64,000 nucleotides of DNA from positions 7,210 to 71,209 of the forward strand of contig JBAZDX010000008.1 of NCBI GenBank assembly GCA_041654255.1, in the 5' to 3' direction. The notes below the pieces were generated by a model that saw only the letters and a program-made list of their open reading frames with translations, ran no database searches and was not told where the DNA came from. Position 1 is the stretch's first letter, and every line of letters starts with the position of its first letter. The position numbers and the translations under genes were made by a program. Positions 704 through 42,147 of this stretch are shown here, in pieces. The stretch is from Sulfurimonas sp. (lineage in GTDB: Bacteria > Campylobacterota > Campylobacteria > Campylobacterales > Sulfurimonadaceae).

Positions 704-734
704 TATGTTCGCTCTGTTTGTTTAAGGTTTTAGT

Positions 735-7409: not shown

Positions 7410-7420
7410 GGAGAAACACA

Positions 7421-8663: not shown

Positions 8664-8665
8664 AG

Positions 8666-9598: not shown

Positions 9599-9612
9599 GC
9601 AAAGGCTAGAAA

Positions 9613-26924: not shown

Positions 26925-26960
26925 ACCAGACATAAAGCTGTCAAAACTCTTCTCTATACT
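26925..26960 (+). promoter_or_regulatory. Island box copy 1 (ACCAGACATAAAGCTGTC-N12-TATACT)
   Basis: The box is a perfect copy. It starts 5 nt after the rny stop codon, and the ATG at 26991 lies 30 nt after the hexamer. Confidence 0.5.
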
Positions 26961-26990
26961 TCTCCTATAACTATTTTATAGGAGCTTACA

Positions 26991-27197
26991 ATGCCAAAAC
27001 AAACATCCTCTTTTACTACAAATTATAAACCAACCGACTTCATTGACGCGGAGTTAGTTGATAAGGCTTCGTTGTGGATACTGCGTATTATTGTGAAAAC
27101 ACATGGATATAGAGAGTTTCTGGATGAAAAAGGCAACTTTGAGTATGTCAAACGAACTCTAAAATTGGGCACAAAAACTTCAAGCAAAAATCTATGA
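26991..27197 (+). pseudogene. N-terminal remnant of the downstream AAA+ ATPase gene (frameshift/deletion)
   Basis: This 68 aa ORF overlaps the open upstream extension (from 27163) of the AAA+ frame. The extension reads 'AKIYEVS...', which resembles the segment that normally follows a Walker A. No intact Walker A for AAA domain 1 is present. Confidence 0.45.
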
Positions 27198-27264
27198 AGT
27201 TAGCTATACAAACAGTGAAGAAGAGTCTATTGATGGAAATCAGCGTTTAAAAGCCTATAAAAGC

Positions 27265-28440
27265 GTGCAAGCACTCTTGAGTAATGAGAATACATTACTC
27301 ATGTATGATGAAGCTGAAGATATTTTTGAGAGTAGTGGTGGCTCTTTTTTTGCACCGCGTCAAAGACAAAAAGACAAAGCGTGGATAAACCGTATATTAG
27401 AATCTAACACTATCCCTACGATTTGGATTACAAACAACGTTGAGAGCGTAGACAGCGCTATTGTTAGGCGCTTTGATATGAGCATAGAGGTTCCCATCCC
27501 TCCTAAAAAAACAAGAGTTGAGATTATTAAAAAATATAGCGAAAATATGTTGGATGAAAAAACACTCCAGATGCTGGCGGCAAATGAAAATATCTCTCCT
27601 GCGGTCATCTCAAGCGCGACAAAGGTAGTGGGCAGTTTACAAAATGCTAATCAAGCGGAAGCATTTACGCACCTGCTTAACAACACGCTAAAAGCGCAAG
27701 GATATAGTGAGATCAATAAAAACAGCGGTGTATTGCTTCCAAGTAACTACAATCCTGCATTTATTAACACTACTACAGACCTAAATGCACTGGCATCTGG
27801 CATAAAAGAGAACAAAAATGCGCGTCTATGTCTTTATGGACCTGCGGGAACAGGTAAGAGTGCATTTGGCAAATATATAGCAGAGGTAATTGAGCAGCCT
27901 ATTCTTTTAAAAAAAGGTAGTGACTTGATCTCTAAATGGGTGGGTCAAACTGAGCAAAATATAGCAAGAGCGTTTCAAGAGGCAAAAGATGAAAAAGCAG
28001 TGCTTGTTTTTGATGAAGTAGATACTTTTTTAGCCGATAGAGAGAGTGCAAAAGCAAGTTGGGAGATAACGCAGGTTAATGAGATGCTTGTACAGATGGA
28101 AAACTTTGATGGGGTGTTTATTGCCACGACAAACCTGATGGACAATCTCGACCGTGCTAGCCTAAGACGCTTTGACCTAAAACTTGAGTTTGGGTACCTG
28201 CAACCAAAACAGGCATGGGAGATGTTCTGCTCTTATGCAAAAGAACTGGGACTTGCTAAACCTCACATGAGTTTTCAAAGCCAAATAGGTTATTTGAGTT
28301 ATCTCACTCCAGGTGATTTTGCGGCGGTGATGCGTCAAAACAGATTTAGACCCATAAAAGATGTGGGAAGTTTTGTAGAGAGACTTAAAGAGGAGGTTGC
28401 CGTTAAAAATACGGTTGGGAAGAAGATGGGGTTTTTGTAA
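27265..28440 (+). CDS. AAA+ ATPase with domain 1 truncated and domain 2 intact
   Basis: It begins at the Walker B of domain 1, 'LLMYDEAEDIF'. Domain 2 is complete, with 'LYGPAGTGKS', 'VLVFDEVD' and 'ATTNLMDNLDRASLRRFD'. Confidence 0.8.
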   Translation: MQALLSNENTLLMYDEAEDIFESSGGSFFAPRQRQKDKAWINRILESNTIPTIWITNNVESVDSAIVRRFDMSIEVPIPPKKTRVEIIKKYSENMLDEKTLQMLAANENISPAVISSATKVVGSLQNANQAEAFTHLLNNTLKAQGYSEINKNSGVLLPSNYNPAFINTTTDLNALASGIKENKNARLCLYGPAGTGKSAFGKYIAEVIEQPILLKKGSDLISKWVGQTEQNIARAFQEAKDEKAVLVFDEVDTFLADRESAKASWEITQVNEMLVQMENFDGVFIATTNLMDNLDRASLRRFDLKLEFGYLQPKQAWEMFCSYAKELGLAKPHMSFQSQIGYLSYLTPGDFAAVMRQNRFRPIKDVGSFVERLKEEVAVKNTVGKKMGFL

Positions 28441-28453
28441 GATGGACAGTAAA

Positions 28454-28489
28454 ACAAGACATAAAGTTGTCGCATGTATGAAGTAGACT
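28454..28489 (+). promoter_or_regulatory. Island box copy 2 (variant ACAAGACATAAAGTTGTC-N12-TAGACT)
   Basis: The box has 2 mismatches and starts 13 nt after the AAA+ stop codon. The ATG at 28515 lies 25 nt after the hexamer. Confidence 0.45.
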
Positions 28490-28514
28490 ATCATTAAAAT
28501 ATAAAGGATAGTTT

Positions 28515-29180
28515 ATGGAAAGAAGAAACTTTTTTAAATTTGTTGTTGCAATATATGGACTGTTTGGCATAAGTGCAAATGCTAAAGAAGCCAAGCAAGT
28601 TAAGCACATAAATTCACCAACAATGGATAAGTTATGTATTATTGGAATTGGTGGAGGAGGCACTAACATTGTAAAAGAGATATTAAAACTAGATAATACA
28701 CATATACCCATCTATCTTAGCAGTGACTATGACTTACTTAATCAAAAAAAGTCTAAACATCAGATTATGTTGGGTTGGAAAGAAAAATCAGGGCTAGGTT
28801 GTGGAGGTAACGCGGAATATGGAAAAAGTCTAGTAAATAATGACATAAAAAACAAACTTAACGAACTGACCAAATCCATGGAGACAGTTTATGTCATATC
28901 GTCGCTGGGAGGTGGAATTGGAAGTGGAGTCACTCCAGAAATTGTAGAGCACTTAAAAACCTTGAATAAAAAAGTTATAGCGTTTGTAACCATTCCCTTT
29001 AGTTTTGAAGGAAAGAAACGAATGGCTGTAGCAAATAATTCAATGATAAAAATAAAAGAATATTCAGATACTCTTGTTATTTTTAATAACGATTCTTTAC
29101 TTAGTGATGCTAAAGGCAGAGGTGTTAAAGATACTTTTAAATTAACATCGGGAACATTTTATAGAATGATGAAGTCTTAA
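28515..29180 (+). CDS. FtsZ/tubulin-like GTP-binding domain protein with an N-terminal twin-arginine-type signal sequence
   Basis: 'IGIGGGGTN', 'GLGCGGNAEYG', 'SLGGGIGSGVTP' and 'TIPFSFEGKKR' parallel the FtsZ G-box, T4 signature and H5-S6 motifs. The protein ends before the T7 loop and C-terminal domain. The N-terminus is 'MERRNFFKFVVAIYGLFGISANA'. Confidence 0.7.
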   Translation: MERRNFFKFVVAIYGLFGISANAKEAKQVKHINSPTMDKLCIIGIGGGGTNIVKEILKLDNTHIPIYLSSDYDLLNQKKSKHQIMLGWKEKSGLGCGGNAEYGKSLVNNDIKNKLNELTKSMETVYVISSLGGGIGSGVTPEIVEHLKTLNKKVIAFVTIPFSFEGKKRMAVANNSMIKIKEYSDTLVIFNNDSLLSDAKGRGVKDTFKLTSGTFYRMMKS

Positions 29181-29183
29181 AAG

Positions 29184-30410
29184 ATGAATGAAGAAGATAT
29201 ATTAAACGAGATTATTAACAATCCGTTTATAACAGAAGAAGGTGATGAACGATATCTAACAGACAAAGATTTTATGTTTTACGCTTGCAAAAAATATAGT
29301 TGGGTATTTGAATATGCAGGCGCGGAATTAAAAGCCGATAAAGAGTTCTTGCTTGAAGTTATGAAATATTCTTCTTCTTGTTTTCGGTGGATAAATAGAG
29401 TGTTAAAAAGAGATAGACAATTTGTGCTTAAAGCAGTAAGAACAAATGGTTTGATTTTAGAATACACTCTTAAAAAATCAAAAATGGATAGAGAGATTGT
29501 ACTTGAAGCAGTTAAAGAAAATGGTAACGCTTTACTGTTTGCTCACAAAAAATTTTTATCTGATAAGGAAATAGTTCTAGAGGCGGTAAAAAATACTATT
29601 AGTTCCTACTACTGCTTAGATAAAGCATCCTGTTCAAGCGTCACAGGTTCATATGTAAAGTATTCTCAATCGTTAGGTGTAGCTTGTGAAAAGTTGAGAG
29701 CTGATAAAGATGTCGTGTTGGAAGCTGTCAAAAGTAATGCTTGCGCTTTAGAATATGCCAGTGATGCATTAAGAGATGATATGGAAATTGTATTTGAAGC
29801 CGTTAAGAAAGATGGCAGCGCTTTGGAATATGCCAGCGATAGATTAAAGGCTAATAAAGAGATTGTCTTTGAAGCAGTACAAAACGACATATACTCTTTA
29901 ACGCACGCAAGTATAGCATTGTTGCTTGATCAAGAGTTTATTTTTAAAGTAAGTGAAACAATTGGGATTGGTGTAGAGTTTCTAAGTAGTGGGTCCATAG
30001 AAGATTTAAACGATGCAGAGGCTATGCTCGAATCAGCTAAAAATAGTGGCACTGATATATATACTGCTAGCAAAGAGTTGAAAGATGATAAAGCATTTGT
30101 GCTCATGGCCGTCACAAACGACGCTTGCTCTTTAGAATACGCAAGCGAGTACATAAGAGCTGACAAGGAAATAGTATTGGCAGCTATATCTAATAATGGC
30201 TTAGCTTTACAATACGCTAGCGAAGCATTGAAAGTGGATAAAGAAGTAGTACTAAAAGCTGTCAAAAACAATGGTCTGGCTTTACAATATGCAAGTAAAA
30301 TATTACGGGTTGACAAAGATATTATCTATATAGCCGTTAAAAATAATATATTAGCAAAACGATTTATTTTTGGTATGTCACCTATACAAGCAAAAAATAA
30401 AATGCAATAG
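29184..30410 (+). CDS. DUF4116 repeat protein
   Basis: It has about 10 tandem ~33 aa units of the form 'DKEIVLEAVK.NG.AL.YAS..L..'. Confidence 0.75.
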   Translation: MNEEDILNEIINNPFITEEGDERYLTDKDFMFYACKKYSWVFEYAGAELKADKEFLLEVMKYSSSCFRWINRVLKRDRQFVLKAVRTNGLILEYTLKKSKMDREIVLEAVKENGNALLFAHKKFLSDKEIVLEAVKNTISSYYCLDKASCSSVTGSYVKYSQSLGVACEKLRADKDVVLEAVKSNACALEYASDALRDDMEIVFEAVKKDGSALEYASDRLKANKEIVFEAVQNDIYSLTHASIALLLDQEFIFKVSETIGIGVEFLSSGSIEDLNDAEAMLESAKNSGTDIYTASKELKDDKAFVLMAVTNDACSLEYASEYIRADKEIVLAAISNNGLALQYASEALKVDKEVVLKAVKNNGLALQYASKILRVDKDIIYIAVKNNILAKRFIFGMSPIQAKNKMQ

Positions 30411-30455
30411 TACATATTAGATATAATAAAAAATAAACTTTAAGGAACTCTATAA

Positions 30456-31238
30456 ATGCAAGCAAAAAAAGAAATTATTTTGCAAAACAGTCTTGATGAA
30501 CTGTATGTAAATGTACTAAATAAAGAAAAGCTAAATAAAGAATTTGGAGACGATACTAGTGTGCTTTCTGCTCCATTCTTAATTAATGTGCCACAAACAT
30601 ATGCTACGGCAAACAAAAAGGTTTTATATATTGGTAAAGAAACTAATATTTGGTGGGGCAAATTAAAGCATTTTATTGATTATGATGACTCAATTGATAT
30701 TTTAAAACAAAGATATACTGCTGAATTTGAAGGAGGGTCTGTAACGCAGTCAAAAGATCCTCTTGGAAAACCAAAAGAGTATATAGGAGAGGATTGGAAA
30801 AATAATGCATTTTTTTCTAAATATAAATACTTTCGAGAGAATATAATCGGGGCTTCAGTCCTTTGGACAAATCTTTTAAAAATGGACGATGGAGGCAAAG
30901 GCTATGCAAAAAACTCAATTCATAACCAAAAAGTAAAAGAATATTCAAAAAATATTCTTTTGCAGGAGATAGAAATTTTAAAACCTGATATTATAATTTT
31001 TGTAACAGCGACCTCTACAAATTTAAAAAAGTATGACGATGCAATAAAAAATACATTTGATAATAATTTTCAAAAGTCAAAGGTTTGTGAACCAAAACAA
31101 TTGTGGATTTTTGAATATGATGGCATAAAATGTTATAGAACACTCCATCCGCTCAGTCATCAATTTAGAAAACTAGAACGAGATTATTATAAAGAGATAG
31201 CGGAAGATATTAACAATGGATTTCCTCTGTTTAAATAA
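30456..31238 (+). CDS. Hypothetical protein (weak resemblance to the uracil-DNA glycosylase superfamily)
   Basis: 'VLYIGKETN' and the late 'TLHPLSH' loosely resemble UDG motifs A and B. The family assignment is low confidence. Confidence 0.45.
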   Translation: MQAKKEIILQNSLDELYVNVLNKEKLNKEFGDDTSVLSAPFLINVPQTYATANKKVLYIGKETNIWWGKLKHFIDYDDSIDILKQRYTAEFEGGSVTQSKDPLGKPKEYIGEDWKNNAFFSKYKYFRENIIGASVLWTNLLKMDDGGKGYAKNSIHNQKVKEYSKNILLQEIEILKPDIIIFVTATSTNLKKYDDAIKNTFDNNFQKSKVCEPKQLWIFEYDGIKCYRTLHPLSHQFRKLERDYYKEIAEDINNGFPLFK

Positions 31239-31314
31239 AAAACTATAAGTGATGAGGAGTAACTAATATTAAAGTTTGGTATAAATATTTTGAAGAAAGG
31301 CTAAATAAATATAA

Positions 31315-31911
31315 ATGAAAATACTCCACACTACTGATTTACATTTCAATAAACATTGGTTTGATTGGATAGCTACTCAACAAAACAGCTATGATATTTT
31401 TTGTATTACCGGTGATTTTTTGGAAAGCTTAAAAGAAGAAATTTTAGGTGAGCAAATAGCGTGGATAACAGAGTGGATGAAAAATTTTCAAAAACCTCTT
31501 TTTGTGTGCAGTGGGAATCACGACATAGAGGAGCTTGATAATGAAGATTGGCTATCAAAAATCTCAAATGTTTATAGTGACAATACTATCAAAACCATAA
31601 ATGGCATTAAGTTTGGATGTGTACCTTATATAGCGCCTGATTTTATAGATTTTGATGAATGTGAAGTTATTTTGTGTCATTTGCCACCGGCATTGTCAAA
31701 AACTGCTTTGCACTGCACAACAAAAGCCGATTGGGGAGACAAAGAGATAGCAAGACTACTTCAAAAAGAGATATTAAGACCAAAAGTACTTTTATGCGGA
31801 CATATGCATTACCCACAAGCAACTACAGACTGGATAAAAAATACCATTATCTATAATCCTGGGGTTGATAAGACAAAAACAGTTCCTCTTCATCATATTA
31901 TAGAAATTTGA
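31315..31911 (+). CDS. Calcineurin-like metallophosphoesterase
   Basis: It has 'ILHTTDLHF', 'ITGDF', 'CSGNHD' and 'LCGHMH'. Confidence 0.8.
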   Translation: MKILHTTDLHFNKHWFDWIATQQNSYDIFCITGDFLESLKEEILGEQIAWITEWMKNFQKPLFVCSGNHDIEELDNEDWLSKISNVYSDNTIKTINGIKFGCVPYIAPDFIDFDECEVILCHLPPALSKTALHCTTKADWGDKEIARLLQKEILRPKVLLCGHMHYPQATTDWIKNTIIYNPGVDKTKTVPLHHIIEI

Positions 31912-31920
31912 GTAAACTTA

Positions 31921-31956
31921 ACCAGACATAAAGCTGTCCATATAAACTATTATACT
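31921..31956 (+). promoter_or_regulatory. Island box copy 3 (perfect box-N12-TATACT)
   Basis: It starts 9 nt after the preceding stop codon. AGGAG and the ATG at 31981 lie 24 nt after the hexamer. Confidence 0.5.
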
Positions 31957-31980
31957 TCTAAATAAACTTAGGAGTCAAAA

Positions 31981-32697
31981 ATGAATAAAGTTAAAATAAA
32001 AGATATAGCGGATGAGCTAGGAGTAAGCACTAAAGAGGTGTTACATAGAGCTGTTTTGATGTCTATAGATGTTAAATCTATAAGAAGCACTGTTTCACTT
32101 GAAAATGCACAAAAAATATTTGATGCAATAATATATAATCAACAACCTGGCGCAGATAATCTAGATAGTTTGTTTTATAAAAGCAAAAATCTTAATATTT
32201 ACCTATCTGAAAATAGTGTTGATATGATTTTTTTAAATAATATATCATTGCCATACATCGACCAAGGTATGGACAACTTTTTGCTATTTAGTTACAACTT
32301 TTCTGACGATAGACTTCAAGAACTATACTCTATGTCGCTGGATAAATTGAATATTGAAAAGTATTTAAAAAAGAAATTTGACGACAGTGATTTTAAAAAC
32401 TTAGCAGAAAGTGTTAAAAGCTTTTCTAATGATTTTGATATAAGTTTCATAGATAATAAACCGCTTGATAATCTAAAACTATATTGTAGAAAATTTAAGC
32501 CTCAATTAATATCTATAGAAGGAATAGATTTTTCATTTATTGAAAACAACAACTTTGAAATTTTTAATACTATCAAAGAAATGACGCTATTTGGTATAAA
32601 GTTTGAATTGGGCATAGTTAATGTAAGTATAAATAAAAAAGACATATTTAGAAATAAACTTAATAATCTTTTTGAGACCGTTTGTTCACCTCGTTAA
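31981..32697 (+). CDS. Hypothetical protein with an IF2_N-like N-terminal helix motif
   Basis: 'KIKDIADELGVSTKEVLHRAV' resembles the IF-2 N-terminal motif. The rest of the protein is unassigned. Confidence 0.5.
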   Translation: MNKVKIKDIADELGVSTKEVLHRAVLMSIDVKSIRSTVSLENAQKIFDAIIYNQQPGADNLDSLFYKSKNLNIYLSENSVDMIFLNNISLPYIDQGMDNFLLFSYNFSDDRLQELYSMSLDKLNIEKYLKKKFDDSDFKNLAESVKSFSNDFDISFIDNKPLDNLKLYCRKFKPQLISIEGIDFSFIENNNFEIFNTIKEMTLFGIKFELGIVNVSINKKDIFRNKLNNLFETVCSPR

Positions 32698-32791
32698 AAA
32701 TAGCTTAAATTAATCAGCTCAGAGGTATCAATGAAAAAGAAGCAGTAATGGATTTGGCAACATCCTAAGTATCCAAAATTTTTCCACCAAA

Positions 32792-32827
32792 ACCAGACAT
32801 AAAGCTGTCAATGAAATATTTTATACT
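32792..32827 (+). promoter_or_regulatory. Island box copy 4 (perfect box-N12-TATACT)
   Basis: The listed ATG at 32811 lies inside the box-to-hexamer spacer. By analogy with the other copies, the real start is the ATG at 32853. Confidence 0.5.
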
Positions 32828-32852
32828 ACCTATATCAAAACAAAGGGCGCAT

Positions 32853-33542
32853 ATGTTATTTGATGAAATCGTATTTATAGTAGAGACTATTTTACATGAA
32901 GGTCTTGAGCAGACAAAGCAAACAAGAAAGGCAGGATATCTATATCAAAACAAGTACATGTGCCGTGCAGGTTATGATTTGTATCTTGTTATTGAGTCTA
33001 TCTATGGTGCTATGAAACTTTCGTTAAAACACTATTTTCCTCATAATTATGAAGTTCTGTGTGAGGGAACGAAGAGCTTTTCGTCGCCAAAAGAGAAGTG
33101 GGAATATTTTACTAATGAAGATTTCAGCTACCTTACAAAAGTGATGATAAAGTTTTTAAAAATAGCACAGAGTTATCATAATTCATTTATCTCAATTAGT
33201 TATGGAGGAAATTTGGAAGAATTTTTTGGATGTAAAAACCAGTGGCAAGAGCTTTTTTCTAAAACATATTGTTCCGGTAAAATAGAGAACGATATGTTAA
33301 AAGTAAGTTATTTGCTATGGGCAAAACCGCTAGAGAGAAAGGAGTGGGATAGTAGAGCGATACACCAAGAGCCTGTCTTCATTGTTTATGATATCTCAAG
33401 CTTAGAAAAACGCAAAGAGATAGAGAAGCTTGCACAGCAAAATATACAAAAAATTCAAATCATTATGCGAGAGCTAAAAGATTTTATGCTTAAACACTGC
33501 ACACTTCAAGAGATGCTTGAAAACAGAGAGCTACAGCGATAA
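32853..33542 (+). CDS. Hypothetical protein
   Basis: The ORF has been re-started at Met15 (32853), which is preceded by AAGGG. I recognise no family. Confidence 0.5.
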   Translation: MLFDEIVFIVETILHEGLEQTKQTRKAGYLYQNKYMCRAGYDLYLVIESIYGAMKLSLKHYFPHNYEVLCEGTKSFSSPKEKWEYFTNEDFSYLTKVMIKFLKIAQSYHNSFISISYGGNLEEFFGCKNQWQELFSKTYCSGKIENDMLKVSYLLWAKPLERKEWDSRAIHQEPVFIVYDISSLEKRKEIEKLAQQNIQKIQIIMRELKDFMLKHCTLQEMLENRELQR

Positions 33543-33559
33543 AAGAGAGGAAGATAGAG

Positions 33560-34387
33560 ATGATAGAAGAAGCAAAAAAAATCATTGACGCAGCAGATGC
33601 TATTCTCATCACTGCTGGTGCCGGAATGGGTGTGGATAGCGGCTTGCCTGATTTTAGAGGAAAAGAGGGCTTTTGGAGGGCATATCCTGCTGCTAGAGAG
33701 CTAGGAATTAGTTTTTCTCAGATGGCAAACCCCAGCTGGTTTAAGAGTGACCCAAAGCTAGCATGGGCATTTTACGGACATAGGTTGCATCTCTACCGCG
33801 ATACGAATCCTCATATTGGATTTGCGATATTGCAAGAACTGGTTCAAGCTAAAAATCAAAACTATTTTATCAATACTTCCAATGTTGATGGACAATTTCA
33901 AAAGGCAGGCTTTGATGAAAAAAAGATTGTTGAAGTGCATGGAAGCATTCACTTTGTTCAATGCAGTGGACACTGCAAGGGGATAGAGAGTGCTGAATAT
34001 ATCGAAGTTGCTATAGATATGCAAAAATTTGAAGCACTGAGCATCCCTTTGTGTCCACGATGCAGCGAAGTGATGCGTCCAAATATTTTAATGTTTGGAG
34101 ATTGGACTTGGTGGCAGAACCGTACAGATGCTCAAGAGCAAAGGTATAAAAAATGGCTCAAAGAGAATTTTTCAAAAAAAATAGCTGTTATTGAACTAGG
34201 GGCTGGCACAAATATTTCTACAATTAGGCTAGAAGGAGAGAGGATTGTTAAGAAATTTCCTGATGCAACTTTGATTCGAATAAATCCTAATGATTATGAG
34301 ATAGAAAGTACCAATGGTGTTAGCATGCCATACGGCGCAAAACATGCTTTAGAGTTGATTTTTAAAAAAACAGTGATTTTGAGATAA
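33560..34387 (+). CDS. SIR2-family NAD-dependent protein deacylase (sirtuin)
   Basis: It has 'ITAGAGMGVDSGLPDFRG', 'NVDG', 'HGS' and the Zn-ribbon cysteines 'CSGHC...CPRC'. Confidence 0.85.
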   Translation: MIEEAKKIIDAADAILITAGAGMGVDSGLPDFRGKEGFWRAYPAARELGISFSQMANPSWFKSDPKLAWAFYGHRLHLYRDTNPHIGFAILQELVQAKNQNYFINTSNVDGQFQKAGFDEKKIVEVHGSIHFVQCSGHCKGIESAEYIEVAIDMQKFEALSIPLCPRCSEVMRPNILMFGDWTWWQNRTDAQEQRYKKWLKENFSKKIAVIELGAGTNISTIRLEGERIVKKFPDATLIRINPNDYEIESTNGVSMPYGAKHALELIFKKTVILR

Positions 34388-34403
34388 GGATAAGGGAAGA
34401 AAA

Positions 34404-34862
34404 ATGGGTTATATATACTATGATTATGAATTTAAAACTGATGAGTTTAAAAAAAAGTATCTATATTTTTTGCAACATATAGATGAAGAGATACGTCTTT
34501 TTTATCGTAAAAATGCATCAATGCTACAAATATTAATAACATACAAAAAACTATTTGGTATGACACCCATCTCTTTAAGAAGTAGAAGTGACAAAGAAGC
34601 GATAGAACATAGAAATTTTGTTTTATATCTGTTAGTGTATTTCTCTAAAGAATCATTTACAAGCATTACAGAATATTTCAATGTTAGTGAAGAGTTTTTG
34701 CAAAAAATGAGAGACGATGATAGTTTGCATACAATATATGAAGAGAAAACAAAACTATTTTTTGACCTTCATAGAGAAGAATATATACTTAACAAAAAAG
34801 CCCAAATTGCATTAGCGGAAGAAATAAGTATGACATTGCGTATTGAATGCAAAAAAAAGTAA
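34404..34862 (+). CDS. Hypothetical protein (possible DnaA-C-like HTH)
   Basis: 'SRSDKEAIEHRNFVLYLLVYFSKESFTSITEYF' loosely resembles the DnaA domain IV pattern. Confidence in this resemblance is low. Confidence 0.45.
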   Translation: MGYIYYDYEFKTDEFKKKYLYFLQHIDEEIRLFYRKNASMLQILITYKKLFGMTPISLRSRSDKEAIEHRNFVLYLLVYFSKESFTSITEYFNVSEEFLQKMRDDDSLHTIYEEKTKLFFDLHREEYILNKKAQIALAEEISMTLRIECKKK

Positions 34863-34898
34863 ACCAGACATAAAGCTGTCTAAAGCACTTCTTATACT
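34863..34898 (+). promoter_or_regulatory. Island box copy 5 (perfect box-N12-TATACT)
   Basis: The box abuts the TAA stop at 34860-34862. The ATG at 34931 lies 32 nt after the hexamer. Confidence 0.5.
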
Positions 34899-34930
34899 TC
34901 TACATATTAGAAGAAAAGGATTTTATTTAC

Positions 34931-35389
34931 ATGTTAACAACTCCGGAAAAAACACTGCAACTTTGGAAACTGAGCGATGAGCAAATAGCCAAAATTAAAT
35001 CTATCGCACAGAGATTCTTGGAACTTGAAAATATTATTAGACAAGAAAGCCAAAAGATAAAAAGCGCCTTGGATATAAGAGTATTAGACCAAGATGATTG
35101 GGTACAAGATTTTGAGATAGAAGCTACTATGACATGCTATATCAGTGAAAGTGATATTGATTATGATGTAGATGAAGATAATATCTTGTGTGTTGTTCCG
35201 GACTATAACATCAAGAACCAAAGAGATTGGAACGAGCAACTAGACTCAAGATTTGTTGGTAATTTTCACTGCGGAAGCTTTTGGTGGCTTTATAGTGCCA
35301 TGCAAATTTCATGGGAAAATATCTTGAGAATAGACTCTATTTATTTAGATCTAAATGTTGTGTATCAAAAAAATTTAAAAATACTATAA
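34931..35389 (+). CDS. Hypothetical protein
   Basis: It is a 152 aa ORF and the first gene after box 5. Confidence 0.45.
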   Translation: MLTTPEKTLQLWKLSDEQIAKIKSIAQRFLELENIIRQESQKIKSALDIRVLDQDDWVQDFEIEATMTCYISESDIDYDVDEDNILCVVPDYNIKNQRDWNEQLDSRFVGNFHCGSFWWLYSAMQISWENILRIDSIYLDLNVVYQKNLKIL

Positions 35390-35400
35390 AAGGACAATCG

Positions 35401-35763
35401 ATGCAGAAAATACTTAAAAATGTAGTTTTACTATCAGGCAGACCCGCAAGTGGAAAGACGCAGATATTGATAGCTTATGCAAACTATTATCCAGAGACGA
35501 CATTGTTTATCTCGAATGAAACTACAAGAGAACAACTTACGCAAAGAGGTTTAGATAAAAAGATTGCATACTGTACCGCCTTTGATAAAATTGATATAGC
35601 AAAGTTTGAGACAATTTGTATCGACTATTTAGAGTTGTTTGATAAGGATGCAATTATGCAGTTTATAACAAAAGCTCTCGAGAGTAACATAAGAGTTGTT
35701 GTTGCAACACAAATGAAACGAAATGGTGCAACAAATAATATATTTGAAAACATATCAGAGTGA
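35401..35763 (+). CDS. Small P-loop NTPase (RecA/DnaB-superfamily-like core)
   Basis: It has Walker A 'GRPASGKT' and a Walker B-like 'ICIDYLE'. The ATG at 35401 has AAAGGA upstream and is preferred over 35311, which overlaps the previous gene. Confidence 0.55.
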   Translation: MQKILKNVVLLSGRPASGKTQILIAYANYYPETTLFISNETTREQLTQRGLDKKIAYCTAFDKIDIAKFETICIDYLELFDKDAIMQFITKALESNIRVVVATQMKRNGATNNIFENISE

Positions 35764-35782
35764 AAAGAAGTGTTTCTTTGCA

Positions 35783-35836
35783 GTGCTGATGCGTCAAAAT
35801 AGATTTAGAGCGATTAAAAATGTGATGAGCTACTAA
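35783..35836 (+). pseudogene. 3'-end remnant of a second copy of the island AAA+ ATPase gene
   Basis: It translates to 'VLMRQNRFRAIKNVMSY*', which parallels 'AVMRQNRFRPIKDVGSF' at 28326-28376. The nucleotide similarity is visible by eye. Confidence 0.5.
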
Positions 35837-35968
35837 TAATTATTAAATAGCTCATATAGTGATACGATTACCATATGTAGCCCTATAGAAAAATAAATAT
35901 GCTATAATCTATCTTTTAAAATAGATAAAATATATTTAAACGGCTTAATTTATCTAAAAGGATATATT

Positions 35969-36283
35969 ATGATAGAGCTTATGAGTCCACATGAGATAGC
36001 TTCAGAGTTTGTACAAATCATAGAAAAAGAGCGTATCAGGCAGGATCTGAGACAAAAAGACCTCTTTGATGCAGCGGGCATCTCATCTTCTGCCTATGCA
36101 AAGTTTTTGAAAAATAAAAACACATCGTTTGAAAATATCATCAAACTTCTTGTGGCACTTGGGATGCACGCCAACATTCAAGGGCTTCTTTTTAGTCAAA
36201 AGTTTGCTTCAATAGAAGAGATTAGAGAGGCTAAAGCAAAAAAACGCAAACTTAGAGTAAAAAAGGCAAAAGATGCAAACTAA
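35969..36283 (+). CDS. HTH (XRE-type) antitoxin, HipB-like
   Basis: It has the HTH segment 'LRQKDLFDAAGISSSAYAKFLKN' and overlaps the hipA-like gene by 11 nt. Confidence 0.7.
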   Translation: MIELMSPHEIASEFVQIIEKERIRQDLRQKDLFDAAGISSSAYAKFLKNKNTSFENIIKLLVALGMHANIQGLLFSQKFASIEEIREAKAKKRKLRVKKAKDAN

Positions 36284-37556
36284 ACTTACAGAGATTGATG
36301 CGTTTATATATGGTCAAAAAATTGGAACGCTTATCTACCATCAAGGCGCTATCTACTTTGAGTATGATGCAGCGTTTAAAAAATCTTCTTTAGAGATTTC
36401 GCCGCTAAAACTTCCTCTTGCTAAAACAACAGGTGTTTATATAAACCCAGATAATTTTTATCTTTATGGCGGATTGGCGGGCGTGTTTTTTGATTCGCTT
36501 CCTGACAAGCATGGCATGGCTTTTATAGATACTTATTTTTCAAAAAAAGGTCTTAAGCAAAACCAGATTACACTTTTGCACAAACTGGCATTTATAGGCG
36601 ACAGAGGGATGGGAGCCATAGAGTACCGCCCTAAAGAGCATGAAGAAAATCAAAGTGTTTTAGATGTGTTGGATGCAAAAAATGCCTATGAGAGCATGAA
36701 GAAAATTTTAAACGAGAAAGACGAGATAAGCTCCATAGAGAGTTTTATGAACATTATCGATAGCGTCTCTCCGCTTGGCGGCGGCAGACCAAAAATGCTC
36801 ATCACCTACAACCCCCAAACTAAAACGCTAAGATTTAACACAAAAGCTATACCTCATGGATATAAAAGAGCGATTATTAAATTTGATGAAATCTACTATG
36901 AAAAAGAGAGCCTCAATTTTACAAAACTTGAGTATATTTATATGCTTATGGCAAAAGAGTGTGGGATTATAGTGCCACCTATTTACTTGCATGAAGAAAA
37001 TGGGGAGCATCACCTTATAATAGAGCGGTTTGACAGAGATTCTAATGATGAGAAGTTGCATATCGCTACCGCATCGGCTCTTATGCACATAGACATCTCA
37101 GTGCCTCAAAGCAGTTCGTACGAGCAGCTATTTGCGCTTACAAGAGTGCTTTGTAACAACCAACTTGAACTTGAGCAGCTTTTTCGTCGCATGCTCTTTA
37201 ATGCGCTTGCTTATAACTTTGACGACCATGCAAAAAATTTCTCCTTTATCATGGATAGATTTGGCAAATGGAAACTCACCCCCGCCTATGACATAACCTA
37301 CTCTAAAGGGTTGGCTACGCAGCACATCACCACTATCAACGGCAAAGGGCTAGATTTTACTATGGATAATTTTTACGCTATAGCACAAAACCATAGCATC
37401 AAAAAAAGCAGAGTAGATGCTATGCTTAGAGAAGTTTTAAAAGCGTTAGAGTCATTTCAAGAGAGAGCACAGGCGATAGGGATAGATGCTAAAACCATCA
37501 AAGAGTGTAGCCAAGATTTGCAAAGACAAAGAGAGTTTTTAGATTTTTCTCATTGA
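36273..37556 (+). CDS. HipA-family serine/threonine kinase toxin
   Basis: The N-terminal coupling domain has 'IGTLIY...IYFEYD'. 'GGGRPKMLI' and 'FDDHAKNFSF' are HipA kinase motifs. Confidence 0.85.
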   Translation: MQTKLTEIDAFIYGQKIGTLIYHQGAIYFEYDAAFKKSSLEISPLKLPLAKTTGVYINPDNFYLYGGLAGVFFDSLPDKHGMAFIDTYFSKKGLKQNQITLLHKLAFIGDRGMGAIEYRPKEHEENQSVLDVLDAKNAYESMKKILNEKDEISSIESFMNIIDSVSPLGGGRPKMLITYNPQTKTLRFNTKAIPHGYKRAIIKFDEIYYEKESLNFTKLEYIYMLMAKECGIIVPPIYLHEENGEHHLIIERFDRDSNDEKLHIATASALMHIDISVPQSSSYEQLFALTRVLCNNQLELEQLFRRMLFNALAYNFDDHAKNFSFIMDRFGKWKLTPAYDITYSKGLATQHITTINGKGLDFTMDNFYAIAQNHSIKKSRVDAMLREVLKALESFQERAQAIGIDAKTIKECSQDLQRQREFLDFSH

Positions 37557-37592
37557 TGCAGACATAAAGATGTCAACAAAGCATTATAAAGT
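37557..37592 (+). promoter_or_regulatory. Island box copy 6 (variant tgCAGACATAAAGATGTC-N12-TAAAGT; TATAAT follows at 37593)
   Basis: The box abuts the hipA stop codon and precedes the WYL regulator gene, whose ATG is at 37636. Confidence 0.45.
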
Positions 37593-37635
37593 TATAATCA
37601 GTTTATTTTAAACAATTTCCACACAAAGAGCAAAC

Positions 37636-38559
37636 ATGGCATACAAACACGACTACGACAAGATACTTACAAGGCTCTCGTATATCCTCTCAAGACTAAA
37701 TGACGGAGAGGCTCTTTCAGTCAAAGACCTCGCAAAAGAGTTCAACACCAGTGAGAGAACCGTGCAGAGAGATTTTAACGAGCGACTTGTCTCTTTTCCA
37801 ATACTACAAGAGGGTAAAAAGTGGAAGATGCAAGATGGTTACAGGGTTGAGAAAACCAAGTCATTGGAAGATGAGATAGTTTTAGACATCATAGAGAAGA
37901 TCACCGAGAGCATAGGCGGCAAGTTTGCATTAAAATCCCATAAGCTGCTCTCAAAAATAAAAAATCAAGATTTCAATCCCATCTATGCAAAGCTTAACAT
38001 CGAAGACATCAGCGACAAGTTCGGCGAGATACAGATTATAGAGGGTGCCATAAAAGCAAAAAAAGAGATAGAGTGCTCTTATGATGATGAGAGGCATGAT
38101 ATTTTCAAGGTAACACTTCAGCCCCTAAAAATTGTAAATTTTGAGGGGTTCTGGTATCTGGCTGCACTCCAAGATGAAGTGCTTAAGAAGTACTACTTAA
38201 AAAATATATCCAATGTAAAAGCGACTGATACGGCTTTTTTGACTGATGCAAAGCTTGAAAATCTGCTTGATAGCTCCATATCTGTATGGTTCCAAAAAGA
38301 TGTAGAACCGTTTGAAGTTAAGATTTATGCCAACAAGATTGCCACAAAGTACTTTCAAAGAAGACCGCTTCCGACACAGAGCATAGAGTCGCTCCACAAA
38401 GACGGAACAATGGAGTTTGTCATAAAGATAACGCATGAGATGGAGATACTTCCCATCATCAAGTATTGGCTGCCACATATGAGAGTCATAGAGCCCGAGT
38501 GGGTACAGGAGATGATAGACGAGGATTTAAAGGGTTATTTGGAGATGAGAATAAAATGA
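37636..38559 (+). CDS. HTH-WYL-domain transcriptional regulator
   Basis: It has the N-terminal HTH 'LSVKDLAKEFNTSERTVQRDF', the WYL motif 'FEGFWYLAALQ', and the C-terminal 'IKYWLPHMRVIEP'. Confidence 0.85.
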   Translation: MAYKHDYDKILTRLSYILSRLNDGEALSVKDLAKEFNTSERTVQRDFNERLVSFPILQEGKKWKMQDGYRVEKTKSLEDEIVLDIIEKITESIGGKFALKSHKLLSKIKNQDFNPIYAKLNIEDISDKFGEIQIIEGAIKAKKEIECSYDDERHDIFKVTLQPLKIVNFEGFWYLAALQDEVLKKYYLKNISNVKATDTAFLTDAKLENLLDSSISVWFQKDVEPFEVKIYANKIATKYFQRRPLPTQSIESLHKDGTMEFVIKITHEMEILPIIKYWLPHMRVIEPEWVQEMIDEDLKGYLEMRIK

Positions 38560-40034
38560 GACTATCCAAATCGCTCTACATAAGAGGACTTCAATGCACA
38601 AAATCTCTTTGGCTTAAAAAGTATAAAAAAGATGTTCTGACTCCGCCTGATGGCTCTGTGGAGGCTATATTTGAAACAGGAAACGAAGTTGGCGCTTTGG
38701 CATGTCAGCTTTTTCCTGAGGGTAAGGAAGTGCCTTATGAGAACACAAGCTTTGAGGAAAAAACAGCGCTTACAAAAAAGTGGATAGATGAAAGTGCAAC
38801 AAACATCTACGAGGCGACATTTGCGTATGATGACATAGTTGTGATGGTTGACATACTTCACATCAACAGCGACGGCACGCTTGAAATATATGAGGTCAAA
38901 AGCTCAACTGAGGTAAAGCCAGTCTATCTTGATGATGTCTCCATCCAGCAGTATGTCTTAAACGGTTTGGGCTACACTGTCAAGAGCGCAAATGTAGTCC
39001 ACATCAACAACAAGTATGTAAGAGGCGATGAGCTTGAAGTCGAAAAACTCTTTAGTGTTGTAGATGTGAGCGATGAAGTTTTGGAATGCCAACACAACAT
39101 CCCAAGCTACCTAAAGCTTTTTAAAACAGAGTTGAGTGATAGCGAAAATATGCCTGAAATTGACATTGGCACGCACTGCACAAACCCTTATGAGTGTGAC
39201 GCTATGAGTTACTGTTGGAGTCATGTTGCGAGTTACAGCATTTTTGACATCTCAAGACTAAAGAGCGATACCAAGTTTTCTCTCTACAAACAGGGCATCG
39301 TAAATTTTAGTGACATTGCAGATATATCGAGTTTTTCGCTCTCACAGCAGATACAGATAAACTCTGAACTTGAGAACAGAGAGATCATCAACCGTGAAGC
39401 GATAAAAGAGTTTGTAGATAGTTTAACTTACCCGCTTTATCATCTTGACTTTGAGACATTTCAACAAGCAGTGCCGCAGTGGAAGGGCGTTAACCCCTTT
39501 ATGCAGATACCGTTTCAATACTCTTTGCATGTAGAAGAAAAAAACGGAGATTTGAAGCATTACGAGTTTTTGGCAGAGGACGGCAAAGACCCGCGATATG
39601 AACTAGCAAAAAGACTGGTAAACGACATACCTGCCAATGTAACTGTTTTGGCTTATAGCATGGGTTTTGAAAAAGGAGTGATACGCAAACTGGCAGAACA
39701 GTTTGAAGAGTTCGCGCCAAAGCTTCTTGCCATTCATGACAACATAAAAGATTTGATGACACCGTTTCAAAAGAAAGATTATTATACTCCAAATATGAAA
39801 GGAAGTTATTCAATCAAAAAGGTACTTCCTGCACTTGTGCCTGAGATGGAGATGGCGTATAAAGAGTTGTCACTTGTACACAACGGCGGCGAGGCAATGC
39901 AGACATTTGCAAAGCTCTCAAAGATGGATGATGCAACAAAAGAGCAGTACAGAGAAGCTCTGCTACAATACTGCAAGCTCGATACACTGGCGATGGTGAA
40001 AGTTTTAAAAAAATTAAGGGAGAGTGTGGGATGA
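38556..40034 (+). CDS. DUF2779-type protein with a Cas4/RecB-like PD-(D/E)xK nuclease domain and a DEDD-like C-terminal domain
   Basis: Its start forms an ATGA overlap with the WYL stop codon. It has 'VDILH...LEIYEVKSS' (D..ExK), Cys residues in 'LQCTKS' and '[15 protein letters not shown]', and 'YHLDFETF'. Confidence 0.75.
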
Positions 40035-40339
40035 GTGATGTATTAAAATTAAAATCGATATATGAATTATTATACAATGAAGAAGGCAAGCCTGAAAGTT
40101 TTTTTATTCCATCATATCAAAGAGGTTATAGATGGACAAAACAACAAGTGGTGGAGTTGTTAGAAGATATTTTCTAATTTGACAAAGATGTCCAATTAGA
40201 AAAAAATAAAGGATTTTATTGTTTACAACCAATCGTTGTTAAAAAAAGCAAAAACCAAGAGTATAGATGGGATGTTATAGATGGACAACAAAGGTTAACT
40301 ACAATATTTATTATTTTAAAAACAGCAGATCTTGGATGA
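40031..40339 (+). pseudogene. DUF262 (GmrSD/ParB-like nuclease N-domain) gene with an in-frame stop, truncated after ~100 codons
   Basis: '[12 protein letters not shown]...LLEDIF*FDK...[19 protein letters not shown]' carries the DUF262 signature motifs. An in-frame TAA lies at 40175-40177 and the frame ends at 40339. The start forms an ATGA overlap with the upstream stop codon. Confidence 0.7.
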
Positions 40340-40763
40340 CATAAAAAATTTTCAAATTCAAATAGTTTCTGATGATGAAATTTATTTAAATAAAGGAAAA
40401 ACAAGTGTAACAAGTTGGGAATGGTCAAGAGTTGCAGAACTTAGAAGCTTTTATGTCTATAGGATGCTGAAACTAAAAGATGATAGTGTTCACTACTATT
40501 CAACAAGCGAAGTAAGAGATGTTTGTTTATATTTTGATATAAAGCACAATAATAAAGACTTGGCTTTGGATGTAAAATATGATACAAAAGAGGAAAATTT
40601 TACATCTAAATTATTTTATAGAGATGGGAGTGATTTACCTGAAGATTTAAAAAATAAAAAATTAGAAGAAATTATGTTGTGTGGCGAAAACAATAATATT
40701 GAAACATCAGTAAATAGTATTATAGAGTTTAAAAGCAATATTAACAAAGAGTCTTGCCAATGA
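40332..40763 (+). CDS. Hypothetical protein
   Basis: It is a 143 aa ORF with a TTG start. It occupies the position where the rest of the DUF262 gene would be expected. Confidence 0.35.
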
Positions 40764-40940
40764 CCATGTCTAAATCTAAATATGAAGCGTTAAAAATTCA
40801 GTGTCAATCAGATAAAACAAAATTTATAGTCGATGGTATAGATTTATCTGGGAAGTTGGAAGCAAAAAATGATAAACCAAAATTTCATGAAATAGCCGAA
40901 ATATAAAAAGCATTTATTGGAAGGATTAGAGAATTTACAA

Positions 40941-40976
40941 ACCAGACATAAAGCTGTCAAAACACTCCTGTAAGAT
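40941..40976 (+). promoter_or_regulatory. Island box copy 7 (perfect box-N12-TAAGAT)
   Basis: It is followed by AAGGAG and the ATG at 41005, but only a 21-codon ORF and non-coding debris lie downstream. Confidence 0.45.
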
Positions 40977-41226
40977 TACACTAAATCAATAAAGGAGCTG
41001 CAAAATGCAAACACAAACAATCAAAGTACGACTTAACATAAACGGATACGAGGCTCATATTGGGTATTAATTTTTAGAAGGTATTACAAGAAATTTGCCT
41101 GATATTTCCAAAAATCAAACTATATTTGAGCAATTGGCATATTCAGACAATCCAGAAGTTAGAGTATACTGCCACCAATAATTCAGACAACATATAGAAG
41201 AACGTGAAGCAAGCTAAATGTGATTT

Positions 41227-42147
41227 TTAATACAAATCTTCTGCTTCATTAATCTCTGAATCATCGTACGGGTCCATATGTATAAGTACATGCACCTTTT
41301 TATTTTCAAAAAGTTTTTTTAGTTTAGCTTCTAATTTGTCAGATATAAGATGTGCGTCATAGAGTGATATACTAACATTAAAAACAACATGAACAGAGAT
41401 AAAGATATGCGAGCCCGACTCTCTGGTTTGAAGATGGTGATAGTTTGTAGTAGTTGCATCATTTTCTATAATATCTTTGATTTTTTGTATATCCTCTTCT
41501 GATAATGCGGCATCGAGGAGCATTAAAACACCCTCTTTGATGATAGGCATAGCAGAATAGATCATGTAAATACCAATACCGATGCCAAGAACGGAGTCAA
41601 TTAGATTCTCACCCGTAAAAAATACAAGCCCAAGCGCCAAAAGAACTGCGCCGTTTGAAAAAAGATCTGTTTTGTAATGAAGCGCATCGGCTTTTATGAC
41701 CATATTGCCTGTTTTTTTGGCAACACCGTTTAAAAATAAAACTAACAAAGATGTAATTATTATAGAGATGAGCATAACAAAAATAGATACACCCATGTAT
41801 TCCATCTCTCTCGGATGAACAATCTTAACAAGCGCTTCGTAGAGGATAAAGAGTGCCGACAGTGAGATTATGGTTCCCTCTATAACTGCTGCAAGAGGTT
41901 CTATCTTACTTCTTCCATGGTGGAATTTATCATCCGGATCTTTTTCAGAATTATGAAGAGCAAAGTAGTTAAAGAGAGATACTGTTAAATCCAGAAGAGA
42001 GTCTATGGCTGATGCTAAAACGGCTATTGAACCGCTTAAAATACCGACTGTCATTTTTATAACGACAAGCAGCGCAGCGACGGACGTTGATATGACAGTC
42101 GCTCTTTTTTCTATTCTCATTTTAGTCCTCTGTGTTTTAGGGTACAA
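41227..42147 (-). CDS. Cation diffusion facilitator family transporter
   Basis: It has six TM helices, 'SAIDSLLD' and 'HYKTD', and a C-terminal cytoplasmic domain. Confidence 0.85.
   Translation of the reverse strand: MYPKTQRTKMRIEKRATVISTSVAALLVVIKMTVGILSGSIAVLASAIDSLLDLTVSLFNYFALHNSEKDPDDKFHHGRSKIEPLAAVIEGTIISLSALFILYEALVKIVHPREMEYMGVSIFVMLISIIITSLLVLFLNGVAKKTGNMVIKADALHYKTDLFSNGAVLLALGLVFFTGENLIDSVLGIGIGIYMIYSAMPIIKEGVLMLLDAALSEEDIQKIKDIIENDATTTNYHHLQTRESGSHIFISVHVVFNVSISLYDAHLISDKLEAKLKKLFENKKVHVLIHMDPYDDSEINEAEDLY

Follow-up and report, generated by a model that had tools for sequence, protein, structure and literature searches.

Here, we describe a 64,000-nucleotide stretch of the genome of Sulfurimonas sp. 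(GCA_041654255.1, contig JBAZDX010000008.1, positions 7,210 to 71,209; hereafter, the window), in which a 14.3-kb array of accessory genes lies between rny, encoding RNase Y, and a CDF cation-efflux gene, and in which one short DNA element, here called the box, recurs ahead of otherwise unrelated genes (Table 1). In its 18-nt form, ACCAGACATAAAGCTGTC, the box occurs exactly at positions 26925, 31921, 32792, 34863, and 40941, and as variants at 28454 (two mismatches) and 37557 (three mismatches). All seven copies lie on the + strand; by chance, 0.05 matches would be expected. No further copy was found in the window at up to three mismatches, and when the search was loosened to four, no credible box appeared in the remaining 50 kb. 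An earlier reading of this DNA, made from the letters without database searches (the sequence-only reading), had reported the same seven copies and their restriction to the island, and both points held.

Table 1. Genes, pseudogenes, and box promoters of the array and its flanks (window coordinates; each box row spans the box, the 12-nt spacer, and the hexamer, and that of box 6 also the TATAAT that follows)
Feature	Coordinates	Strand	Basis or remark
rny (RNase Y), core gene, left flank	25351-26919	+	Pfam RNase_Y_N, KH, HD
Box 1, exact, 12 nt, TATACT; left end of array	26925-26960	+	L200/L202 array homology starts exactly here
AAA+ ATPase pseudogene, IetA-like ATPase domain	26991-28440	+	Pfam AAA; PADLOC IetA-like match; 702-aa orthologues
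Box 2, 2 mismatches, 12 nt, TAGACT	28454-28489	+	
FtsZ/tubulin-like GTPase gene; single-gene module with box 2	28515-29180	+	Pfam Tubulin
DUF4116-repeat gene	29184-30410	+	Pfam; homologues of the 29184-31911 genes in L200, L016
Unknown gene	30456-31238	+	Part of segment 29184-31911
Metallophosphatase gene	31315-31911	+	Pfam
Box 3, exact, 12 nt, TATACT	31921-31956	+	Box + IF2_N module also in L200
Gene with IF2_N-like N-terminal domain	31981-32697	+	Domain scan
Box 4, exact, 12 nt, TATACT	32792-32827	+	
Unknown gene (listed open reading frame)	32811-33542	+	Probable start ATG 32854, with ribosome-binding site; first codons of the reading frame overlap the -10 hexamer
SIR2-family gene	33560-34387	+	Pfam SIR2
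Unknown gene	34404-34862	+	Last gene of the 32811-34862 unit
Box 5, exact, 12 nt, TATACT	34863-34898	+	Begins at the base directly following the stop
Paralogue of box-4 gene	34931-35389	+	
P-loop fragment	35311-35763	+	Open reading frame with P-loop only
hipB	35969-36283	+	Colinear with L202, along with hipA, WYL, DUF2779
hipA	36273-37556	+	Colinear with L202
Box 6, variant TGCAGACATAAAGATGTC, 12 nt, TAAAGT, with TATAAT directly after; WYL gene promoter region	37557-37598	+	
HTH-WYL-WCX transcription factor, proposed box-binding regulator	37636-38559	+	Pfam HTH_11, WYL, WCX
DUF2779 protein, recurring partner of the WYL gene	38562-40034	+	Pfam; beside or near WYL gene in L064, L202, L203, L205
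DUF262-type pseudogene, stops and frameshift	40035-40940	+	YQRGYRW and DGQQRLTT motifs broken by stops
Box 7, exact, 12 nt, TAAGAT	40941-40976	+	
Remnant of HEAT-like family (~180 aa, MQTQTIK...), frameshifted, 3'-truncated; right end of island	41005-41190	+	
CDF cation-efflux gene, core, right flank	41227-42147	-	Pfam Cation_efflux, ZT_dimer; adjoins rny in relatives

The layout around the boxes is strikingly regular. In all seven copies, 12 nt separate the box from a hexamer of the TAnnnT type (TATACT four times; TAGACT, TAAAGT, and TAAGAT once each), and in six of the seven, a ribosome-binding site (RBS) and an ATG follow within ~24 to 32 nt. Five boxes (26925, 28454, 31921, 34863, and 37557) begin 0 to 13 nt past the preceding stop codon, and no intergenic terminator-like site was found on the + strand of the island, where the sole two candidates are intragenic; on each of these features, our results agree with the sequence-only reading. 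A sigma-70 consensus scan listed two of the seven box promoters, both of them variants, with 26 weaker sites not displayed. The match at 28467 is TTGTCG-16-TATCAT, while that at 37570, which belongs to the WYL gene's own promoter, is ATGTCA-17-TATAAT. In both, the end of the box supplies the -35-like hexamer, and the -10 used differs from the hexamer at 12 nt.

We scanned one genome per bacterial species for the pattern CAGACATAAAGNTGTC-N12-TANNNT and obtained at least 118 stretches. Of the 118 matches listed, 109 lie on Campylobacterota-type contigs (Sulfurimonas, Sulfurovum, Sulfuricurvum, Sulfurospirillum, Arcobacteraceae, and unclassified Campylobacterota), so the arrangement is not specific to this island; the other nine are scattered chance hits in unrelated phyla. 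We analyzed 110 box loci, and as controls, we used 80 box-free Sulfurimonas loci fetched around rny, i.e., 850 kb of core DNA, in which no true box was found. The logo of 140 non-redundant sites reads AAC-CAGACATAAAG-M-TGTC-A, followed by 11 weakly conserved bases and TATAMT, so that the recurrent unit is slightly longer than the 18 nt first proposed. Apart from the -10 hexamer, conservation across these sites runs only from position -3 to position +16, counted from the first base (0) of the 16-nt core CAGACATAAAGNTGTC, with nothing further upstream. Because the 12-nt spacer was part of the search pattern, 53 extra boxes were collected without a spacing condition (other copies in the same loci and the seven window copies); among these, TAnnnT stood at an offset of 12 in 33 and of 11 in 10, compared to ~1.7 expected per offset. 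In most of 126 sites, the start codon lies 20 to 33 nt past the hexamer, which suggests that the element is a compact promoter plus short leader aimed at the gene. Neighboring boxes are co-oriented in 59 of 75 pairs.

Several other identities for the box were rejected. Given the start-codon distance and the lack of any copy in the 850 kb of core DNA, it is not a generic intergenic repeat similar to repetitive extragenic palindromes or miniature inverted-repeat transposable elements. The sequence-only reading had itself stated that its claim would fail if the box were a generic genus-wide repeat at unrelated loci and in both orientations; the box is indeed phylum-wide and present at many loci, but it is always promoter-oriented to the downstream gene, confined to accessory arrays, and absent from core DNA. 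A phage origin was discarded after a scan of IMG/VR yielded a single match, and an RNA gene or tRNA was discarded because the window holds no Rfam family and no tRNA. Typical boxes with Campylobacterota-like cassettes are also present in metagenome-assembled genomes (MAGs) named Gracilibacteria, Pseudomonadota, or "bacterium" (L056, L061, L079, L118, L087, and L089), names that probably reflect binning errors.

At 26961-26985 and many other loci, the bases right after the -10 (ACTTCT, or longer, e.g., CTCCTATAA) complement the Shine-Dalgarno region (AGGAGT; TTATAGGAG). Such a hairpin could mask the RBS in read-through transcripts but not in transcripts from the cassette's own promoter. A hairpin hiding the RBS in the 5' untranslated region is clear in about one-quarter of sites; as a conserved feature, it was set aside, since RNAalifold on 13 AAA+ promoters returned only the invariant ACUUCU/AGGAGU pairing, with no covariation.

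Within the box lies a dyad, GACA-N6-TGTC, whose gene-proximal GTC stands 12 nt ahead of the -10. With the hexamer taken as the -10, TGTC occupies positions -28 to -25 and CAGACA positions -40 to -35, while the position of the -35 hexamer reads ATAAAG. The logo therefore combines a canonical -10 (TATAMT) with no -35 consensus, ATAAAG lying between the two half-sites. Of 140 cassette promoters, just 11 have a G at -14, the signature of an extended -10. The sequence-only reading knew of no described system with this architecture; for the promoter, this does not hold, since a GTC, 12 nt, and a -10 without a -35 have been published for two regulators with WYL domains, PafBC (PMC8635444) and DriD (PMC13004042). 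The PafBC motif is tGTCgg(N10)tA(N3)T, i.e., GTC, 12 nt, and -10, with no -35, and PafB reads the GTC triplet with two arginines four residues apart (PMC8635444). In our reading of the printed sequences, the didA oligonucleotides used with DriD carry GTC, 12 nt, and CAATCT, with an optimized TTGACA between the half-sites (PMC13004042). A third factor, DdaA of Moraxellaceae, has the site CGWCA-N5-TGWCG and activates repair and defense genes (PMC12392091).

DriD of Caulobacter crescentus (didA, bapE, and driD promoters) is a helix-turn-helix (HTH)-WYL-WCX activator turned on by single-stranded DNA, and among solved structures, it is the best profile match of the window's WYL family. It acts as a homodimer on a GAC...GTC pseudo-palindrome overlapping the -35 position, at one fixed site-to-(-10) distance and with no recognizable -35, and its proximal GTC lies 12 nt before the -10, as judged from the published oligonucleotides. 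In contrast to the elements described here, its half-sites are separated by N7 rather than N8, and its flanks read ATACGAC rather than CCAGACA. DriD also serves a few fixed chromosomal damage-response targets, whereas here there are dozens of mobile accessory modules in arrays, and its similarity to the island WYL family is remote (E 2e-5, in the WYL-WCX region only). PafBC of mycobacteria, the "sigma adaptation" system, likewise uses a GTC-bearing WYL-factor element, 12 nt, and a canonical -10 with no -35, and its recognition helix has two arginines four residues apart. Unlike the dyad described here, which reaches to about -42, the PafBC site is a single asymmetric -26 element bound by a heterodimer, and the PafBC regulon of ~150 genes includes core repair genes, none of which was seen downstream of the boxes here. 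DdaA resembles the present case in being a WYL activator with GWCA/TGWC half-sites and in coupling DNA damage to the expression of restriction-modification and CRISPR-Cas genes, the same logic that we propose here for the defense-like cargo. It differs in that its dyad spacing is one base shorter and its targets are fixed genes rather than cassettes with near-identical promoters; its own authors describe a promoter arrangement differing from that of PafBC (PMC12392091). In its half-sites and in its register to the -10, the element agrees with these published sites, and the spacing of its dyad (GAC-N8-GTC instead of N7) is the sole measurable difference. Judged by its sequence, the regulatory element is thus a predicted WYL-factor hybrid promoter, the new features being a dyad one base wider and a new phylum.

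The candidate regulator is encoded in the island itself. Pfam recognizes HTH_11 (27.0 bits), WYL (28.1), and WCX (33.8) in the island WYL protein, each above the curated cut-off. When open reading frames (ORFs) from the 110 box loci were clustered, the WYL family was the largest, with 37 members, followed by AAA+ (20), SIR2 (19), FtsZ-like (18), and DUF2779 (16). By tblastn, WYL homologues were detected in 39 of 110 box loci but in 0 of the 80 box-free Sulfurimonas loci (Fisher p = 2e-11). Sequence identity within the family ranges from 35 to 94% across genera, with an almost invariant recognition helix, (R/K)-T-x-Q-R-D-F. Against solved structures (Protein Data Bank sequences), the family profile matched DriD with E 2e-5, PafBC with 0.009, and BrxR, a WYL repressor, with 0.33. 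A database search returned 1146 WYL homologues at E <= 1e-10, of which the named ones were called only "WYL," YafY-family, or transcriptional regulator.

The same dyad stands in front of WYL genes. Exact GACA-N6-TGTC is present at most ~120 nt upstream of the start in 13 of 31 WYL genes, where ~0.08 would be expected over all 31, and one further gene has an upstream palindrome with a single mismatch. These sites are of two classes. The first is the cassette-type box, 12 to 13 nt from a hexamer, and includes that of the window's WYL gene. The second, GACAGTYAAATGTC, lies 8 nt before a consensus TATAAT with a G at -14 and was seen only before WYL genes (L033, L055, L094, L101, L105, and L118). 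Its placement within the spacer of a strong promoter suggests autorepression, and weak cassette promoters at an activator register, together with a strong, self-occluded regulator promoter, are what one would expect if an activator kept its own level in check. In Sulfurimonas sp. NW15 (complete genome, CP093237.1, 1073696-1094628; locus L201), the WYL gene is the fourth of a box-led operon, preceded by genes for a 103-aa protein, SIR2, and a 5'-nucleotidase.

The reading that we consider probable, if by no means secure, treats the box as one half of a hybrid promoter, the half to which a regulator binds; the island WYL protein would bind and activate it upon a damage or phage signal, and each unit would carry it along. 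A dimer of the HTH-WYL-WCX protein (37636-38559) would bind the box and, like DriD and PafBC, would place RNA polymerase at a promoter that has neither a -35 nor an extended -10. By analogy with the same two factors, the trigger may be single-stranded DNA arising from DNA damage or phage attack, and the signal would turn all box-led units on together. Each unit of one to four genes would have its own copy of the promoter and could thus be gained, lost, or re-ordered while staying in the regulon; the 14.3-kb insertion that separates rny from the CDF gene in the window would be a mosaic of this kind. The sequence-only reading had offered a shared operator or atypical -35 element, with the island WYL protein as candidate regulator, as one of two possibilities, and the promoter geometry and the WYL association favor it. 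The sequences show the motif, its constant geometry and distribution, the link to the WYL family, and the turnover of modules; from them, we infer that this protein binds the box, as well as the sign of regulation, the signal, and the movement of modules.

Several observations weigh against this activator reading. The half-site spacing is GAC-N8-GTC in all copies, whereas DriD and DdaA sites are GAC-N7-GTC. The inner TAAAG is invariant in the cassette promoters and different in the WYL genes' own N8-type sites, and therefore something besides the two half-sites is read. Since the control loci are core DNA, the WYL enrichment may partly reflect accessory regions generally, and the arrays could carry the WYL gene simply as their most frequent passenger. 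Among the 126 downstream genes, no core repair gene (recA or uvr) was seen behind a box, in which respect the PafBC, DriD, and DdaA regulons differ. Finally, Campylobacterota promoters generally have no -35 element, so transcription might start from a good -10 by itself, in which case the factor would act as a repressor similar to BrxR and CapW.

Such a factor would involve the same WYL protein and site with the opposite sign, sitting over the -35 region of constitutive cassette promoters and being released on a phage or damage signal. BrxR and CapW, the repressors of BREX, CBASS, and other defense operons, share the HTH-WYL-WCX architecture, are encoded within defense islands, and have autoregulatory palindromes in their own promoters, as have the 13 WYL genes with exact sites described above. 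The cargo looks defensive (IetA-like AAA+, PDC-S01, McrBC, SIR2, and HipA), the -10 is near consensus in a phylum whose promoters need no -35, and the WYL gene's own promoter pairs the box end with TATAAT at 17 nt, which is an occlusion layout. We nevertheless regard repression as rather unlikely, although it is a serious competitor of the activator reading. BrxR and CapW each repress a single adjacent operon by occlusion, whereas seven units in the window and many unrelated units elsewhere share a fixed, activator-like register. We know of no fixed site-to-(-10) geometry for either repressor, and a repressor does not need its spacing fixed within 1 nt of the -10, yet this is what is seen across more than 140 promoters, at the very spacing of the activators PafBC and DriD. 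Furthermore, the family profile is closer to DriD and PafBC than to BrxR, the match to which is weaker (E 0.33), and the extended -10 G is depleted in the cassette promoters.

The box might instead be a promoter element read by a factor outside the WYL family, either an alternative sigma factor or another conserved Campylobacterota regulator. Its identity across several genera would fit a conserved host factor, and about two-thirds of the short box loci show no WYL gene, but this explanation seems improbable to us: the 20-nt dyad block is too long for a -35, the -10 is sigma-70-like, the half-sites, and the distance from them to the -10, agree with those of WYL-family sites, and the palindrome recurs in the WYL genes' own promoters. 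Nor is any other DNA-binding family comparably enriched in the box loci.

The WYL-dependent promoter reading has each unit travel with its own box, and relatives of the window strain allow the history of the array to be followed. Those with contigs extending past rny mostly have the CDF gene ~20 to 120 bp after the rny stop, and then cmoB. Since rny and the CDF gene are adjacent in close relatives, the 14.3-kb island is an insertion that interrupts core genes, as had been proposed from the sequence alone. Box-less insertions occupy the same place in other Sulfurimonas, one of 6.1 kb encoding unknown proteins (L138, 5091-11227) and one of 4.3 kb encoding a HerA-like ATPase together with DUF4824 and DUF2157 proteins (L153, 1783-6094), and as these are unrelated, the rny-CDF junction is a general insertion hot spot. 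In the closest relative (L120; RNase Y 96% identical), "taaaaaCCAGACAT" stands right after the rny stop, where, within 4115-4560, the half-box CCAGACAT is fused into the perfect palindrome AGACAT-T-ATGTCT. A second box of L120, upstream of an esterase-like gene, breaks off after AAAGC, with TATAAT following at 8 nt. These partial boxes indicate that an array was already at the rny site in a recent ancestor and has been remodeled since. Arrays with ~90% identical genes are found elsewhere in close relatives: in S. crateris (L200) and L203, they follow an HI0933-like gene, and in L202, a HIT gene. In strain NW15 (L201), the array lies in an island flanked by IS21- and IS3-type elements and, at its opposite edge, by a phage-type tyrosine integrase.

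Array content differs among these relatives by whole box-led modules, several of the breakpoints lying at the 5' edge of a box. The homology of the AAA+ module to L200 and L202 starts at the first box base, in three different chromosomal contexts. Compared to L200, the segment 28441-29183 (box 2 and the FtsZ-like gene) is an insertion that separates the AAA+ stop from the DUF4116 start, the FtsZ-like gene of L200 being in a different position behind its own box, and 32715-34837 is absent from L200, which has other genes there instead. Compared to L202, 7.4 kb with four boxes lie between the AAA+ stop and the hipB leader, and hipBA, the WYL gene, and the DUF2779 gene are colinear. Each downstream family has varied upstream neighbors; the 14 AAA+ copies, for example, follow 12 different ones. 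Over all loci, pairwise alignments have their 5' ends concentrated between -13 and +1 of the box, a result that is partly expected, since upstream of each gene nothing beyond the box is conserved. Other junctions lie away from boxes (29179, 32714, 35825, and 37586). The modules behave like cassettes, and homologous exchange anchored on near-identical promoters is a possibility, not a finding.

The box may accordingly have two jobs, i.e., that of a WYL-factor site by which a single alarm signal induces every module and that of a 20- to 35-bp homology anchor for the exchange, insertion, and deletion of modules in naturally transformable Campylobacterota. We put this forward tentatively and think it possible but doubtful; it draws on the AAA+ module that starts at a box in three contexts, the insertion of box 2 and the FtsZ-like gene as a unit, and the half-box at rny in L120. 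Were it true, the array would be the counterpart of an integron that works without an integrase, with the regulated promoter serving as the junction between cassettes. Integrons likewise consist of co-oriented arrays of small modules that vary between close relatives and include toxin-antitoxin and defense-type cargo. Unlike integrons, the arrays described here have no IntI, no attC, and no common Pc promoter, and every module has its own regulated 5' promoter (box plus -10). We found no integrase between rny and the CDF gene, no recombinase among the recurrent families of the 110 box loci, and no attC-like sites, what is conserved being 20 nt at the 5' ends of modules, with arms of only 4 bp. 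The second possibility offered by the sequence-only reading, an integron-like accretion of cassettes that each carry a promoter, therefore stands, as a description only, as far as the re-assortment of box-led modules and several box-edge breakpoints are concerned, but not for the breakpoints elsewhere, the missing integrase and attC, and a box that is fully explained as a promoter element. That the box is primarily a recombination site that builds the array, with promoter activity secondary, is very improbable: co-oriented box pairs, variable module content, the left end of the shared AAA+ module, and the half-box directly after rny in L120 would all suit it, but it lacks an integrase and any extended inverted repeat (conservation stops 3 nt upstream of the core), four junctions are off the boxes, and a fixed distance to the -10 and start codon would not be needed.

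The genes served by these promoters are accessory, the 126 genes directly behind boxes falling into 70 unrelated clusters. Recurrent families of the arrays comprise a ~700-aa AAA+ ATPase with an IetA-like ATPase domain, SIR2, an FtsZ/tubulin-like GTPase, DUF4116, and DUF2779, as well as McrB, McrC, HipA, PcfJ-like, ADP-ribosylglycohydrolase, Macro, and leucine-rich repeat proteins and DUF4143 (candidate defense family PDC-S01). UvrD-nuclease, AddB-like (AddAB-like) proteins, an exonuclease, and a 5'-nucleotidase recur too. PADLOC found no complete known defense system, its matches being at domain level only (IetA-like, PDC-S01, GajB-like, and WYL), and a pooled Pfam scan of 94 downstream proteins returned mostly P-loop families and added little. 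From these domains, the cargo appears to have the flavor of defense or conflict islands, with some DNA-end processing.

To our knowledge, Campylobacter and Helicobacter have no LexA/SOS system, and how damage or phage attack is coupled to gene expression in their relatives is poorly known. The motif described here defines, by sequence alone, a candidate WYL-controlled regulon common to Sulfurimonas, Sulfurovum, Arcobacter, and relatives, whose make-up is unusual in that it consists almost entirely of mobile accessory and defense-type modules with a near-identical promoter copy on each. In the literature searched, the box sequence returned only unrelated primers, and WYL combined with Campylobacterota genera returned no description of the regulon; likewise, we did not find described there a near-verbatim promoter before many unrelated, horizontally shuffled modules in arrays at varied chromosomal sites. 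The arrays provide a natural setting in which to ask whether activation in the PafBC/DriD manner works beyond Actinobacteria and Alphaproteobacteria, and they may exemplify a portable regulated promoter through which genes acquired horizontally become part of an existing alarm circuit immediately. Since many of the ~70 downstream families are unannotated, the box-N12-hexamer pattern is also a simple handle for new conflict and defense genes.

Within the island, Pfam largely supported the gene calls made from the sequence alone (AAA+, FtsZ-like, DUF4116, metallophosphatase, SIR2, HipB/HipA, HTH-WYL-WCX, and DUF2779), and the DUF262 pseudogene was borne out by motifs interrupted by stops in the frame translation. 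Three details needed correction. The AAA+ gene, thought to lack its 5' part, has instead a 671-bp internal deletion relative to the intact 702-aa orthologues and now consists of two ORFs (26991-27197 and 27265-28440). No second 3' fragment of that gene was detected near 35783, where one had been reported; the ORF at 35311-35763 carries a P-loop only. The last box had been said to drive only a 21-codon ORF; the gene is indeed decayed, but the ORF is the broken start of a conserved ~180-aa family, intact homologues of which stand behind boxes in L043, L055, L075, L103, and L112.

Two non-coding stretches of the island are conserved. Just upstream of box 4, 73 nt (32709-32781) recur at 94.5% identity in L068 and L054, two other Sulfurimonas MAGs, in which their orientation relative to boxes differs and the neighboring genes are only ~70% identical. 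The stretch matches no Rfam family and no tRNA, and it may correspond to a small RNA or a tiny ORF. Upstream of hipB, an element at ~35823-35905 contains a perfect 8-bp inverted repeat, ATGAGCTA...TAGCTCAT, and recurs in L202 (4905-4990), in the gap after rny in L120, and in L200 (~9790), one of these loci lacking hipBA. Candidate roles for this element are those of a HipB operator, a terminator, or a small RNA.

A second WYL-WCX paralogue, 33% identical to the island copy and cut by the window start, lies at 56-703 with no box nearby. It belongs to a neighboring type III-B CRISPR-Cas locus (56-13662), in which it is followed by a Fic/RhuM gene, type III-B Cmr genes (4918-9598), an RT-Cas1 (reverse transcriptase-Cas1) fusion (9831-12068), an unannotated small ORF (12069-12350), and a CRISPR array (12756-13662) of ~12.5 repeats with the repeat ATTTCGCCCCGAATTTTCGGGGCAGTTATTTTGAGAC.

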